Below are positions 20,643 to 42,199 of a DNA stretch of 64,000 bases, piece by piece. The position numbers and the translations under genes were made by a program. Each line of letters begins with the position of its first letter. Positions within the stretch are counted from its first letter, which is position 1. The notes beneath the pieces are model-generated. The model was not told where the DNA came from. It saw only the letters and a program-made list of their open reading frames with translations, and made no database searches. Location: positions 9,486,001 to 9,550,000 of the forward strand of contig OZ024746.1 of the NCBI GenBank assembly GCA_964016885.1, read 5' to 3'. The DNA is from Eledone cirrhosa. Its lineage: Eukaryota.

Positions 20643-20928
20643 TATAAAGAAAAAAAGATGAAATCGAAAATGCAACTGGAGTCTTATTTTTAAAAAAATA
20701 TATATATTTATTTGGTTCCTTTACCGATTTCAAAAGGTAGAGTTGAGATGGAGGGTCTGTGGTTTTTCTCACATCTGGGATGTGAGAAAAACCACAGACC
20801 CTCCATCTCAACTCTACTTTTGAAAAGCAGAAGAACTGTGAAACCGGTAAAGGAACCAAATAAATATATATATATTTTTAAAAATAAGACTCCAGTTGCA
20901 TTTTCGATTTCATCTTTTTTTCTTTATA
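20643..20928. repeat. Long inverted repeat (arms ~133 and ~150 bp, 3-nt spacer at 20776-20778)
   Basis: Arms are reverse complements except for an ~18-bp indel and a few substitutions. Confidence 0.93.
20816..20864 (+). ncRNA. Minimal hammerhead variant (U3-A8 core) followed by AATAAA
   Basis: ctt-TTGAAAA-gcag/aagaa/ctgt-GAAA-CCGG-TA-aag; palindromic ACCGGT stem III; AATAAA at 20859. Confidence 0.6.
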
Positions 20929-22014
20929 CTTTCACTCGTGTAGGACACCTCGGTTATTTTTCATTTTGTAAAAAAACCTCACTTTCTAATATATATATAT
21001 ATATATATACATTCAAAGAGAGATTTGCTAATTCCTATTTTCATTTATTTTGCTACTTGATATTCTAAATTCCGATCTTTTACTCAAGAAACACAATTCA
21101 TGCTGCATTAAAAATTCCTTAAATAATTTTCCATTTCATTTTTATATACTTATTTATTTTTCTCTCTTTATTCAACACTTGGAAAAATACAGGGAAATAG
21201 AGTGTGTGTGTGTGTGTGGGGGGGGGCACCTAAGCAGGATGTTTCTTTTGACTAATATCATCAGCTATGTTGTTGTCTAGAGCAGTGAATTAATATAATG
21301 CAAGATGTAATGGTAAGAAAAGTAAATAAATATATAAATAAATATAAAGCAAAAAAGACAATCATAAGTAAAAAACAAAAAAAACAGACAAAATAAAATT
21401 AAAACAGTGATTAAAAATATATTTATGAAAACAAAGCCAATATATAAAAAAACTTAACATGTGTTAATGTCAGTGTGAGGGTGTGTGTGTGTATGTTTTT
21501 GTATCAGAGAGAGGAGGGGAGTTTGGTTGATTCATGATTCAGGTATTAGAATACTGCAGGGTAAAAAGAAATTCCAGTTTAATCACAGTTGACAGCTTGT
21601 GGTGTTTTTTGTTTTGTTTTCTCACTTGTTGCAGCTTTTCACTTTTAACTATGAATGCAATCATCTTGTAAAGGCTTTTGTCAAATTGGTCTGTTATTTT
21701 TTAAGATTTGTGAAGACTTATAGAATGTTTTTCTATTAATGATGCTTGAACTCTTTTCTCTCACACTTATTATTTTTATTATCATTATTGTTATTATTAT
21801 CATCATTATCAGTAGTAGTAGATATGATTGGCAGAATCATTAGAGTTTTGGACAAAATGTTTAGTGTTATTTTTTCTGATTTTTGATGTACTGTGTTTGA
21901 ATATCACTAAGGTCAACTTTATCTTTCCTCCTTCTGAGGTTAAGTACTGGGTGACTTTGATCGACTTTTCCCTCCTCCTAAAATTGCTGACCTTTTGCCT
22001 AAATTATTGATGGT

Positions 22015-31120: not shown

Positions 31121-32024
31121 CATCATCATCATCATCATTTTACGTCCGCTTTTCCCTGCTTGCAAGGGTGGGACGGGTCTTATTCAGCACAGCATCTCTC
31201 CACTCGTCACGGTTCCTCGTCATCTCCACCGTGAGCTTCAATGATCTGAGGTCTGTTCTCACCACCTCCGCCCATGTTTTTCGTGGTCTACCTCTACTAC
31301 GTCTTCCTTCAACTGGCATTTCCTGGCACTTCTTCACCCATCGGTCATCCTCCATGCGCATCACATGTCCATACCACCTCAGTCTCCTCTCCCGTACACT
31401 ACATTCTATCCCTCTCAGACACAGTTTCTCTCTCAACACATTTATGCTGGGTCGTTCACGCACATTTACACTGCACATCCAACGGAGCATGCTTGCATCA
31501 TTTCTCTCCAGCCGTCGCATATCTTCTGCGGTAGCTGCCCATGTCTCACTACCATGCAGCATCGCGCTCCTCACACAGGCATCATACAACCGGCCTTTCG
31601 TACGCAGGGAGAAACCCTTCTTCGTCAACAGAGGAAGCAGCTCCCTAAACTTCTTCCAACCCGTCCTTATTCTAGATACTATGGCCTCGGAACACCCTCC
31701 TCCCATGCTAATCTGATCTTCTAGGTACCGGAAGCTATCCACCACTTCTATAGCGCCCTCTCGCATTTGAAAAATGTGTCTATCAGTGCGACTTCTACTG
31801 TCTAATTTCCCTGTACATCTACTGCATACATATTTCTCCCTACCTGTTAGTTTGCCTGCTATCCCGCTACATCTCTTGTGTACCCAGGACCTACATTGTG
31901 TGCATTTTATAGAATTTATGCCAGTTCCTTTTCTGCATATCGAACATGGCCATTTCCCTGACGGAATCAGGGTTTTGTCCTCTTTTCTACTCATCAACAC
32001 TTTTGTCTTAGCTAGATTTACTTA
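31121..32024 (-). mobile_element. 5'-truncated young RTE-clade LINE; uninterrupted ORF remnant 31140-32000 with PHD-like finger; (GAT)n tail
   Basis: 286-aa open frame: [64 protein letters not shown]; the stop codon abuts the (GAT)n tail. Confidence 0.95.
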
Positions 32025-32480: not shown

Positions 32481-32667
32481 ATATATGTATATATATATAT
32501 GTATATATATATGTATATATATATATATGTATATATATAATGTAGGAGGTGAGTTTTATTGTAGTACAATAAAGCAATGCAGATATCGGATAAGAAGCAC
32601 TCTACAATTTGTAGGACTGGAGTATGCATAATATAAGATCAAAAGATGGTTAAAGGAGTTCCATGTA

Positions 32668-32734
32668 TTTTATTATGCGCATTTCAAAAACAAACATCAT
32701 CATGCAATAATATTTGTGTTTTCATCAGATAAAA
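32668..32734 (-). ncRNA. Type I hammerhead ribozyme (family B), minus-strand copy
   Basis: Reverse complement: ttttat-CTGATGA-stem II-GAAA-TGCGCA-TA-ataaaa. Confidence 0.75.
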
Positions 32735-32844
32735 CAGGAGAACATGATATGAAGGCTAAAAAACACTTGTGGATAGTGCAGATATGTTGATTTAAAACTG
32801 CACTATCCACAAGTGTTTTTTAGCCTTCATATCATGTTCTCCTG

Positions 32845-32911
32845 TTTTATCTGATGAAAACACAAATATTATTGCATGATGATGTTTGCTTTTGAAATGC
32901 GCATAATAAAA
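32845..32911 (+). ncRNA. Type I hammerhead ribozyme (family B), plus-strand copy
   Basis: Stem I ttttat/ataaaa; CTGATGA 32851-57; AU-rich stem II; GAAA 32894-97; palindromic TGCGCA; predicted AUA cut after 32905. Confidence 0.75.
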
Positions 32912-32964
32912 TACATGGAACTCCTTTAACCATCTTTTGATCTTATATTATGTATATATATATG

Positions 32965-33315: not shown

Positions 33316-33600
33316 GGGTGTATATATATATGTATATATATATGGGTATATATATATATGTATATATATATGGGTGTATATATATATGTATATATATATG
33401 GGTGTATATATATATGTATATATATATGGGTGTATATATATATGTATATATAGATTTTGAGTTTATGTTGGTTGTATACCAACACCTCAGTATGCAGGCT
33501 GAAGCACTCGACGAAGTGCGCAGGTTGGTTTGGTTACTCCGGAGTAGTGTAAAATAAAGTTAAATAAAAGTCAAATGATTAAAATTTAGCTTCGTTTATT

Positions 33601-33655
33601 ACTGCTATATATATTTCAGTGACAGCCATCTTTGGCTGTGACCTCTTCAGGCAGT
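33601..33655 (-). ncRNA. Type I hammerhead ribozyme (family D), intact copy
   Basis: Reverse complement: actgc-CTGAAGA-ggtcacagcc/aaagat/ggctgtcact-GAAA-tatata-TA-gcagt, then AATAAA. Confidence 0.8.
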
Positions 33656-33689
33656 TTGAATTAGTATGGTATATACCATACTAATTCAA

Positions 33690-33744
33690 ACTGCCTGAAG
33701 AGGTCACAGCCAAAGATGGCTGTCACTGAAATATATATAACAGT
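33690..33744 (+). ncRNA. Type I hammerhead ribozyme (family D) with a stem I mismatch next to the cleavage site
   Basis: As above but A at 33740 instead of G; AATAAA at 33745-33750. Confidence 0.7.
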
Positions 33745-33969
33745 AATAAACGAAGCTAAATTTTAATCATTTGACTTTTATTTAACTTTATTTTATATGT
33801 ATATATATATGGGTGTATATATATATGTATATATATATATATGGGTGTATATATATATGTATATATATGGGTGTATATATATATATGTATATATATATGG
33901 GTGTATATATTTATATATGTATATATATATGTGTGTGTATATATATATATGTATATATATATGTGTGTG

Positions 33970-39910: not shown

Positions 39911-39995
39911 ATCTATATATATATATATATATATATATTTCGTTTCTGAATTTGTTTAGCAAGATTCTTTATCTGAAAACGTGTGTTTGAAACTG

Positions 39996-40083
39996 ATATT
40001 GTTATACTTTGGGAGGGTCATGTTGCCATGCTGGTGCGTGTGTTTCTTATTGGCAACATGACCCTCCCAAAGTATAACAATAT
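39996..40083. repeat. Perfect 33-bp inverted repeat with 22-nt loop
   Basis: ATATTGTTATACTTTGGGAGGGTCATGTTGCCA ... TGGCAACATGACCCTCCCAAAGTATAACAATAT. Confidence 0.9.
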
Positions 40084-40188
40084 ATATATATATATATATA
40101 TATATTGAGTTAGAAACTCAAAATAGTCTCTTACAATTAAATAGCTCAAAGAAAGGTTTTTCTGAGCTGTGTAATATAATTGAATATA

Positions 40189-40597
40189 AAAGAAAGATAA
40201 ACACAGATATAAACATGTGTTCAAATTGTAAGGGACTAGATTTGCTAGGGTGAAAAAAATACTAACTATTAACAATAGGGTTTGCCAGACTCAATTTAAA
40301 GTAATAAATCAAGAAAAGAAATACAAACCGATATTGGAGTGAAGGTTTTACTAATTTTACACCCACTGATGAGCAAAGAATTGGTAATTCCCTTCGCTAA
40401 AATTGCGAAACAGCTTACCAAATGCTGTCTGGATGTCCGGCAGTTGCCCAATATCGGTTTGTATTTCTTTTCTTGATTTATTTTAAATTGAGTCTGGCAA
40501 ACCCTATTGTTAATAGTTAGTATTTTTTTCACCCTAGTGAATCTGATCCCTTACAATTTGAACACATGTATGTATATATCTGTGTTTATCTTTCTTT
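40189..40597. repeat. Long inverted repeat, ~150-bp arms (40189-40337 / 40448-40597), 110-nt spacer containing a hammerhead
   Basis: Arms are reverse complements with a few substitutions and indels. Confidence 0.93.
40359..40436 (+). ncRNA. Canonical type I hammerhead ribozyme (family E)
   Basis: acaccca-CTGATGA-gcaa/26 nt/ttgc-GAAA-cagc/9 nt/gctg-TC-tggatgt; all core residues present; G10.1-C11.1 pair; GUC site, predicted cut after 40429. Confidence 0.85.
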
Positions 40598-42199
40598 AAT
40601 ATATATATATATATATATATTAATGACATACAACAGGAATGTTTATAATAGGTATCCTTTATCAGGGCTTACCTAGGGTTAAACATAAACAACAACTTTA
40701 TATTGAAGCATTAATGCTAATTCAATTACAACATATTTATTTTCAATGGTAGACTATTGCTACTGAAAACCAAATTTCATAATATTCTCAATAAATAATT
40801 AAAACATTAAAATATGAATATAATTAACATATTGAAGTGAACACCTGAAACACCAAGATATCCCCCAATTAACACAGTAATTGAAACTAATTATATTTAA
40901 CATTGAGTCTAATAGATACCACATTTAATGTAGGATACTAAGAATTATAAGCATGCATTTTCCCAGCTTACTAGGAAAGAACATTTTAAACCCCTAATTG
41001 TTGTTGTTACTGCTTTTTAAGCTCCAATTTGGCTCCGGTAGATCAGAATTAGGAAAAAAGGCATTCTAGCTTTGGCCTATATATTTAGGGCTACGTTGTT
41101 CAGTATATTCTTTCATTTGTAAGACAGTGAGATGTGATTTGAGAGAGACTTCCCTGCTATTTCTAAAATGTAACAGTTCTCTTATTAGGTCAAAGCCTCC
41201 CTTTTAAGGTTGAAGGCCTCCTCATTGTTTGTAACTTCAAGATTTATTATGGTAGGCAGTATACATTTTAAATTTGGCTAATGTCTTAATCTGAGATTGT
41301 GTTAAATCTCTATCAATTGCATCACGTTAGAATCATAATGATTTAAAAAAACATTCACTAATACATTGTTACTTAATTTTGTGTTGGTATGAGTTTTAAA
41401 TACTGTCAAGGGTTAAAAATATTTCAGATTTGTACTCATGTGTCAAGCAATTTGATCTTAGATTGTGTGTTGAAACTAAAACAATTATAGCATGGAGTTG
41501 TATTTTATTTATTTACGAACACAGAAGGATTGTTTTATTCATTTTTCATTAATTTCCTTGAAGTATCAACAAATTTTCAGTGTCCTGACATCAAAACTGC
41601 AATGAAAATATTAACTAAAGAAATATATGTGAAAGAGAACATAACATATTTTTATAGTTAACATGGTTCTTCTGAGATGTAATTGCTTCTCAAAATGCAG
41701 TTGTATATCTAATGCCTGGTCAATGACATTTCCAAATGTAGCGAAGTAGTGTCAGTGACCAGATCTTAGTTGTTAAACAAAATGTCCTCACACTTCATAG
41801 TTTACAATTTCCAATTACTGTTTTTCTAACCACGGTTGAATGAAGTCTCAGCATTCTTTGGCCAGTTTATATAGTATGGTTGTATCTGTCCACGCTGGTC
41901 AACTGTAGTTTAGATGGAGTGATCCCATGGTTAAGTCAATGACCCTTGCCATTGATACATACAATACAATCATGGAAATAAAACAAATGAAGATTAGGAT
42001 ACTAAAGCTATAAATTGTCTGTAGCGTTAGTGTCAAATGAAATGCCTTGCAGTATTTATTCCAACTCTGTGTGTTCTGAGTTCAAACTCTGCTGGGGGAT
42101 GGACTGTATCTGTAATTCAAGGATGTACAACATTGATTCCAGTTGAGAATTACATTAATGATTCACATATCTTTGAAATACTCAGCCACTTTACATACA

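Follow-up and report, generated by a model that had tools for sequence, protein, structure and literature searches.

The locus described here raises the question of why a self-cleaving ribozyme motif lies in the loop of a long hairpin, and whether this arrangement was built for a purpose or was left behind when a mobile element inserted. The window, that is, the whole stretch of DNA analysed, is 64 kb long. The first-pass annotation had reported in it a hammerhead whose core was perfect, with stems II and III of 4 bp each, a GUC site and a 6/7-bp stem I, and we confirmed all of these parts from the sequence:

40359-40436, plus strand: type I hammerhead ribozyme motif with a C.A mismatch in stem I and a predicted cut after C40429
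40359-40365 and 40430-40436: 5' strand (ACACCCA) and 3' strand (UGGAUGU) of stem I
40366-40372, plus strand: core, CUGAUGA
40373-40376 and 40403-40406, plus strand: stem II, GCAA/UUGC, with a 26-nt loop
40407-40410, plus strand: GAAA
40411-40414 and 40424-40427, plus strand: stem III, CAGC/GCUG, with a 9-nt loop

The cleavage triplet GUC places the predicted cut 3' of C40429. Stem I pairs at six of seven positions, and the C.A mismatch is pair 4 counted from the core. Together, the CUGANGA core, GAAA, NUH triplet, stems I-III and open stem I define the motif as type I. A strict hammerhead descriptor had this motif as its sole match in the window and gave no match across 200 shuffled 64-kb windows, in line with its earlier ranking as the best hammerhead of the window. 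Rfam, applied to the whole window at the gathering threshold and to 40050-40650 at E<=1, matched no hammerhead and gave a single chance match. By the sequence evidence, the locus holds a real hammerhead ribozyme motif.

We then compared the arms of the hairpin. The motif had been placed wholly inside the 110-nt spacer of an inverted repeat with arms of ~150 bp, and our coordinates agree. The left arm (40189-40337) and the right arm (40448-40597) are identical at 141 of 153 aligned columns, with five mismatches (three of them G-U pairs) and seven gap columns, and the longest perfect run is 56 bp. The hairpin fold has a z of -31.6, and we accept the earlier proposal that a plus-strand transcript would form a long double-stranded stem with the hammerhead in its loop. 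A correction is needed on the left, where the element extends past the arm to ~40099 as an extra unpaired tail of ~84 nt. The layout of the locus is as follows:

40080-40105, no strand: left-hand (TA)n tract of the insertion target, seen in the sequence
40099-40337, minus strand: inverted 5'-truncated repeat copy, reference positions 526 to 282, 93% identity
40099-40188, minus strand: ~84-nt tail on this side only, a pattern seen across inversions of the family
40189-40337, minus strand: left arm, within the inverted copy
40338-40602, plus strand: forward 5'-truncated repeat copy, reference positions 172-439, 92% identity
40448-40597, plus strand: right arm, the element's own sequence 3' of the ribozyme, from the inverted-repeat alignment and the fold
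40597-40621, no strand: right-hand (TA)n tract of the insertion target, seen in the sequence

The reference is a full unit of the repeat (L007:1330-1862), with a tandem spacing of ~520 nt. An inverted copy thus joins a forward copy head to head between two (TA)n tracts. Since the former covers reference positions 526-282 and the latter 172-439, the arms are the part that both copies share and the loop is the stretch reached by the longer copy only. Five non-majority letters are common to both arms, and in sequence this fits one template lineage for the two. No target-site duplication was visible in the flanking TA tracts, and no empty insertion site was found in the contigs of three runs from one sample, which break at the repeats and whose depths are not copy numbers. 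The locus has one ribozyme, and two ribozyme-bearing units occur at some loci of the family (L013/L016, L057). We consider it very probable that one insertion of a ~520-nt non-coding type I hammerhead repeat, likely a non-autonomous Penelope-like element (PLE; a non-LTR retrozyme), accounts for the locus, and that the hairpin is likely a by-product of insertion. Two smaller observations concern the same stretch. At position 40438, contigs of runs X1-X3 have T where the window has C, which may be allelic or come from a different copy. A small palindromic repeat fragment at 39917-40083 shares its (TA)n tract with the insertion, is very abundant in the one-sample contigs and matches L111.

In order to see how such insertions are usually arranged, we examined the family across the 3.0-Gb genome. 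The repeat is dispersed: a first look gave 3,772 candidates, which is no measure of copy number, and its 35-nt end motif has 423 exact matches. Five pooled search sets, after removal of duplicates and of the locus itself (40099-40602), yielded 121 insertions, comprising 74 head-to-head inversions, 43 in a single orientation and four complex cases; end-to-start partial tandems, a class that overlaps with the inversions, were found in 51 of the 121. The one-sided tail was seen in 46 of the 74 inversions, which end at reference ~449 on one side and ~533 on the other. Only one inversion had the same end class twice, and 27 had at least one end elsewhere. Of 242 flanks of other copies, 154 had a (TA)4+ tract no more than 20 nt away, compared with 204 of 2420 background windows. 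The unit has a GC content of 0.31-0.35, and the longest ATG ORF on dimers of the five family majority sequences is 26-84 aa. It is thus a non-coding unit of less than 50% GC with one type I hammerhead, as non-LTR retrozymes are.

The position of the ribozyme was examined in the same sample. In 16 of 35 simple two-block inversions the whole ribozyme lies between the junction points, with loops of 161-412 nt. This proportion depends on the search, at 12 of 15 from sets picked on the ribozyme or the 5' part and 4 of 20 from sets picked on the 3' part, and three of the 16 inversions share no arm sequence. The ribozyme-in-loop layout is therefore common in the family and is not fixed. The expectation that genomic copies share the arrangement held for the general layout, which recurs elsewhere, but not for the junctions or the arm and loop lengths, which differ with each insertion. 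The hairpin has the form of the usual inverted 5'-truncated PLE insertion, and a purpose-built origin is not supported. The hammerhead core is intact in 39 of 65 sampled ribozyme-spanning copies, and five of the 65 carry the stem I mismatch of this locus.

These features recall the insertions of PLEs. According to PMC8557442, PLE insertions are partial tandems truncated at the 5' end, next to which lies an inverted and likewise 5'-truncated copy; they have a tail of 30-40 bp, often at one end only, and microsatellite targets. PMC11167929 explains the tail as the stretch between two internal start sites of reverse transcription (RT), and reports that both target strands are cut and extended. 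The family studied here has the partial tandems with an inverted 5'-truncated copy, the one-sided tail and the microsatellite bias; its tail of ~84 nt, longer than the 30-40 nt reported, counts against the assignment. PLEs are abundant in the genome. A search for GIY-YIG matches gave 10,596 candidates, of which 150 were scored, and 35 PLE loci were examined. All seven PLE ORFs scanned have an RT domain, a GIY-YIG domain or both (both in three of the seven), and the long PLE ORFs carry the CX2-5CxxC linker that the PLE literature assigns to Neptune and Nematis. In the window itself, a palindrome at 20643-21012 consists of an inverted and a forward truncated PLE 3' repeat and is 93-95% identical to the 3' repeat of autonomous PLEs (L093, L102, L104), which indicates that PLEs make this layout in this genome. 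Inspection by eye showed a minimal hammerhead-like motif, its core UUGAAAA, in the same palindrome.

From the insertion anatomy, the PLE papers and the RT/GIY-YIG ORFs, we infer two-sided priming at a nicked (TA)n tract. A PLE protein, probably of Neptune type, would nick both strands of the tract, and two cDNAs would be primed from internal start sites of the repeat RNA, at reference ~533 and ~449. Both would stop early, at 282 and 172, and then join head to head; as the shorter cDNA stopped 3' of the ribozyme, the ribozyme would be left without an antisense copy and located in the loop. The role of the hammerhead in the source RNA would be to process multimers into monomers. Hence the hairpin is likely to be a by-product of Penelope-like retrotransposition. 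As to an autonomous partner, the unit had no above-shuffle similarity to the 3' regions of 15 PLE loci. Four matches near PLE ORFs were considered as a link to such a partner and set aside, being taken as separate insertions of related families.

Instead of a self-contained non-autonomous unit, the repeat might be a solo terminal repeat (pLTR) belonging to an autonomous PLE outside the sample. The pLTRs of PLEs do carry hammerheads and, according to PMC4209133, are mostly found as truncated solo copies, and the 35 loci examined here are a small part of the PLE candidates. Against this, in tandem copies the end of one unit meets the start of the next directly, with no ORF between (L013/L016, spacing 520), (TA)n borders full units, no long flank is common to the first 20 loci, and the unit dimers offer only the short ORFs given above. 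We therefore regard a solo terminal repeat as improbable and keep to the self-contained non-autonomous unit.

Whether the ribozyme could act in its present setting was examined by predicted folding, which drew attention to three segments:

40338-40356, plus strand: segment X, with two predicted partners, loop II (which blocks stem II) and segment Y (which extends stem I)
40377-40402, plus strand: loop II, containing X' (~40379-40398), which is complementary to X
40514-40533, plus strand: segment Y, the permitting partner of X, here paired to the antisense arm

Fold costs were taken from nearest-neighbour models, which include neither pseudoknots, tertiary contacts nor Mg2+, and were calculated without a control ribozyme of known activity. 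In the predicted fold of the locus hairpin, X pairs with loop II (probability 0.86) and stems I and II are destroyed. With the antisense arm present, the hammerhead fold lies +14.9 kcal/mol above the ensemble, and the ribozyme is predicted to be blocked at all seven nascent lengths tested. The earlier claim that this ribozyme cannot be sequestered thus runs against the model, in which X occupies loop II and the antisense arm removes Y. The hammerhead fold costs 11.5 kcal/mol for the forward copy by itself and 10.1 when X is kept single-stranded, while in intact family majority monomers it costs 3.2-6.6 kcal/mol. The penalty therefore comes in part from the sequence of this copy, its stem I mismatch included. 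With X bound to loop II and Y taken up by the antisense arm, the ribozyme of the locus is predicted to be mostly misfolded, and it is probably not displayed in the loop.

This bears on the proposal of a functional hairpin-RNA gene, in which self-cleavage of the loop would leave an open duplex as a substrate of Dicer or ADAR. The stem is very stable, and the core is intact here, as against the 39 of 65 sampled copies that pass the core test. Five other sampled copies have arms of at least 130 nt around the whole ribozyme, and four more, found with the palindrome as query, have loops of 95-127 nt; these similar-layout copies, however, have different junctions and belong to different subfamilies, which points to independent events. 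A conserved fixed arm and loop layout, as expected of a hairpin-RNA or endo-siRNA locus, was not found among the copies in this genome. Loop sizes range as widely as given above, the arms have drifted at 12 of 153 columns, and the predicted block at every nascent length with the arm also speaks against the proposal. No A>G excess of the kind left by ADAR was seen in family copies (1.21% versus 1.38% T>C, p = 0.23). Pfam gave no match in 76 of 83 candidate ORFs, the other seven, which were low-complexity or CT-repeat frames, having been left out; no host gene was therefore identified in the scanned ORFs, though the locus may lie in an intron. Taken together, these findings make a functional hairpin-RNA gene very improbable. 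The free variation in the lengths of arms and loops makes it most likely that the hairpin arose as a by-product when a non-autonomous PLE inserted, and the locus is probably without selected function. Plus-strand read-through would, by the fold model, produce a duplex of 150 bp with the loop either cut or intact, and likewise at many other copies. Dispersed inverted copies are thus a possible source of long double-stranded RNA wherever they are transcribed.

To place the ribozyme in a broader context, we turned to its relatives. Four further related families were found, with units of ~510-560 nt. Over the five families, stem I changes on both sides at seven of eight pairs, in a compensatory manner. 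In alignment A1, which holds 14 copies, the compensatory cells in both helices numbered 40, compared with 13.6 in shuffles and 4-14 when slid; as the rows come from five families only, the shuffle statistic overstates independence and the slid controls are the better guide. A1 does not align stems II and III correctly between families, and these two stems were compared by eye. Stem III is ~25 bp long in three families (L143-L154, L155-L166 and L167-L178), the best copies of which are 95-100% identical, so some are young. Among these three, one has a U3-A8 core variant, also reported in PMC4209133, and one a GUA cut site. The covariation argues that the ribozyme was under selection in the source elements. 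An AU-rich 9-bp hairpin lies 3' of the ribozyme, within the X:Y domain, at A1 columns 220-243 in all five families and is a candidate protein-binding site.

The two pairings of X were also compared across families. Complementarity of both X:loop II and X:Y is retained in all five despite different sequences, and among 120 permutations the cognate pairings rank first for X:loop II and second for X:Y. In the family majority sequence the X:loop II duplex reaches -25.0 kcal/mol, a value as low as which was found in none of 1000 shuffles. By family, the X:loop II counts were 0, 3, 1, 1 and 98 of 1000 shuffles, weak in F5. For X:Y, a first, loose test was not significant (15-77 of 500 shuffles), and with a fixed homologous window the counts were 5, 2, 96, 4 and 51 of 1000, significant in three families and weak in two. 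Full monomers of four families mostly form X:Y, whereas those of family 1 show a split of 0.49 to 0.30. For the family 1 majority sequence, the hammerhead cost is 15.2 kcal/mol before Y, 6.4 once Y is there and 5.6 when X is absent; Y shifts the cost by only 0-1.3 in the four remaining families, so a delay switch is clearly predicted in family 1 alone.

A tentative reading, which we hold to be possible rather than probable, is that the five families carry a conserved two-state switch. X:loop II would keep the hammerhead off until Y, 84-90 nt past the cut, is transcribed and displaces X; the blocker would stabilise circles, and cleavage in vivo would have left a fossil record in the 5' truncations that gather just 3' of the cut. 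If so, the X blocker would answer, for this family, how animal retrozyme circles avoid self-cleavage. X:loop II may alternatively form a partial pseudoknot that stabilises the active hammerhead, in which case the locus copy would cleave well. In microbial hammerheads, loop II is known to form pseudoknots with flanking strands, and the X:loop II complementarity in five of five families with differing sequences, with the cognate pairing ranked first, would suit this reading. However, X' takes ~20 of the 26 loop nucleotides, and on geometric grounds too few would be left to bridge an 18-20-bp helix and close stem II. We thus think the pseudoknot unlikely.

The fossil record that cleavage would leave was sought at the cut site itself. 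In a genome-wide pattern test, 83 exact matches run through the cut site and one starts at it; this single junction is a copy already in the sample, and ~0.16 were expected by estimate. Because most copies cross the cut site, the template was an uncleaved multimer or a re-ligated circle, in agreement with the non-LTR retrozymes of PMC7229834 and bioRxiv 10.64898/2026.07.22.740005. Among sampled copies, four start at reference 264-266 compared with 0.9 expected (p = 0.013), and the truncation rate is 10.4 per 1000 nt over reference 259-300 against 2.5 over 195-258. The strongest zone of 5' truncation, with 13.1 per 1000 nt at risk, lies at positions 346-400 of L007:1330-1862, where it overlaps segment Y, and is partly open to sampling bias. 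As this stronger zone is unrelated to cleavage, stalling of RT explains the excess 3' of the cut equally well. The truncation excess just 3' of the cut site is hence a weak sign in the sequences.

These elements were compared with known systems. Like the metazoan non-LTR retrozymes (PMC7229834; bioRxiv 10.64898/2026.07.22.740005), they have a non-coding low-GC (31-35%) unit with one type I hammerhead, occur in more-than-unit copies and co-occur with PLEs. The unit of 510-560 nt exceeds the 150-450 bp of PMC7229834 and falls within the 51-972 bp of the bioRxiv study. Whereas those retrozymes form long arrays, the family here consists mostly of dispersed monomers and partial tandems with inversions. 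With a stem III of 4 bp or ~25 bp, no dimer would be needed, which again differs from them, and the pLTR homology described for them was not found in the 15 PLE 3' regions compared. A conserved self-pairing blocker is predicted here, in contrast to the freely folding ribozyme predicted for most metazoan circles in PMC7229834. With endonuclease-containing (EN+) PLEs of Neptune type (PMC8557442, PMC4209133, PMC11167929), the family shares 5' truncation, partial tandems, an inverted 5'-truncated copy, a one-sided tail, microsatellite targets and a hammerhead in the repeat; it differs in a repeat without an ORF, a tail of ~84 instead of 30-40, and a canonical instead of a minimal hammerhead. As in plant LTR retrozymes and hammerhead viroids, described in PMC7229834, the ribozyme is predicted to be blocked by complementary sequence in cis, but it is of type I, not type III, and the blocker competes with a second, downstream partner.

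The insertion layout and the element class are already described in the literature, and the locus is an ordinary one for a PLE-rich genome. The study bioRxiv 10.64898/2026.07.22.740005 proposes an origin of non-LTR retrozymes as non-autonomous derivatives of PLEs, argues the link from co-occurrence and pLTR similarity, mainly in vertebrates, and finds cleavage in one of nine elements tested. Our data, which come from an invertebrate, tie a retrozyme-like unit to the PLE machinery through the way it inserts, with inversion, a one-sided tail and TA targets. In PMC7229834, the blocking of the ribozyme in the circles of animal retrozymes is left as an open question, for which X:loop II versus X:Y is a specific candidate. 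PMC6962438 notes 235 Rfam hammerheads in a squid genome without analysis. The open literature searched held no description of this family or of the X/loop II/Y switch, although the supplements of PMC4209133, PMC7229834 and PMC8557442, or repeat databases, may list such families.

Other features of the window are of a similar kind. A near-perfect palindrome at 32623-32956 carries a minimal hammerhead in each arm (cores at 32851, plus strand, and 32728, minus strand) and is 97-100% identical to a stretch in L111, so it probably belongs to a young family. At 33550-33795, a 99% palindrome has CUGAAGA cores on both strands, and a similar motif occurs near the PLE loci L087 and L095. Finally, an open frame of 293 aa on the minus strand, at 31140-32021, appears to resemble the end of a LINE reverse-transcriptase ORF.
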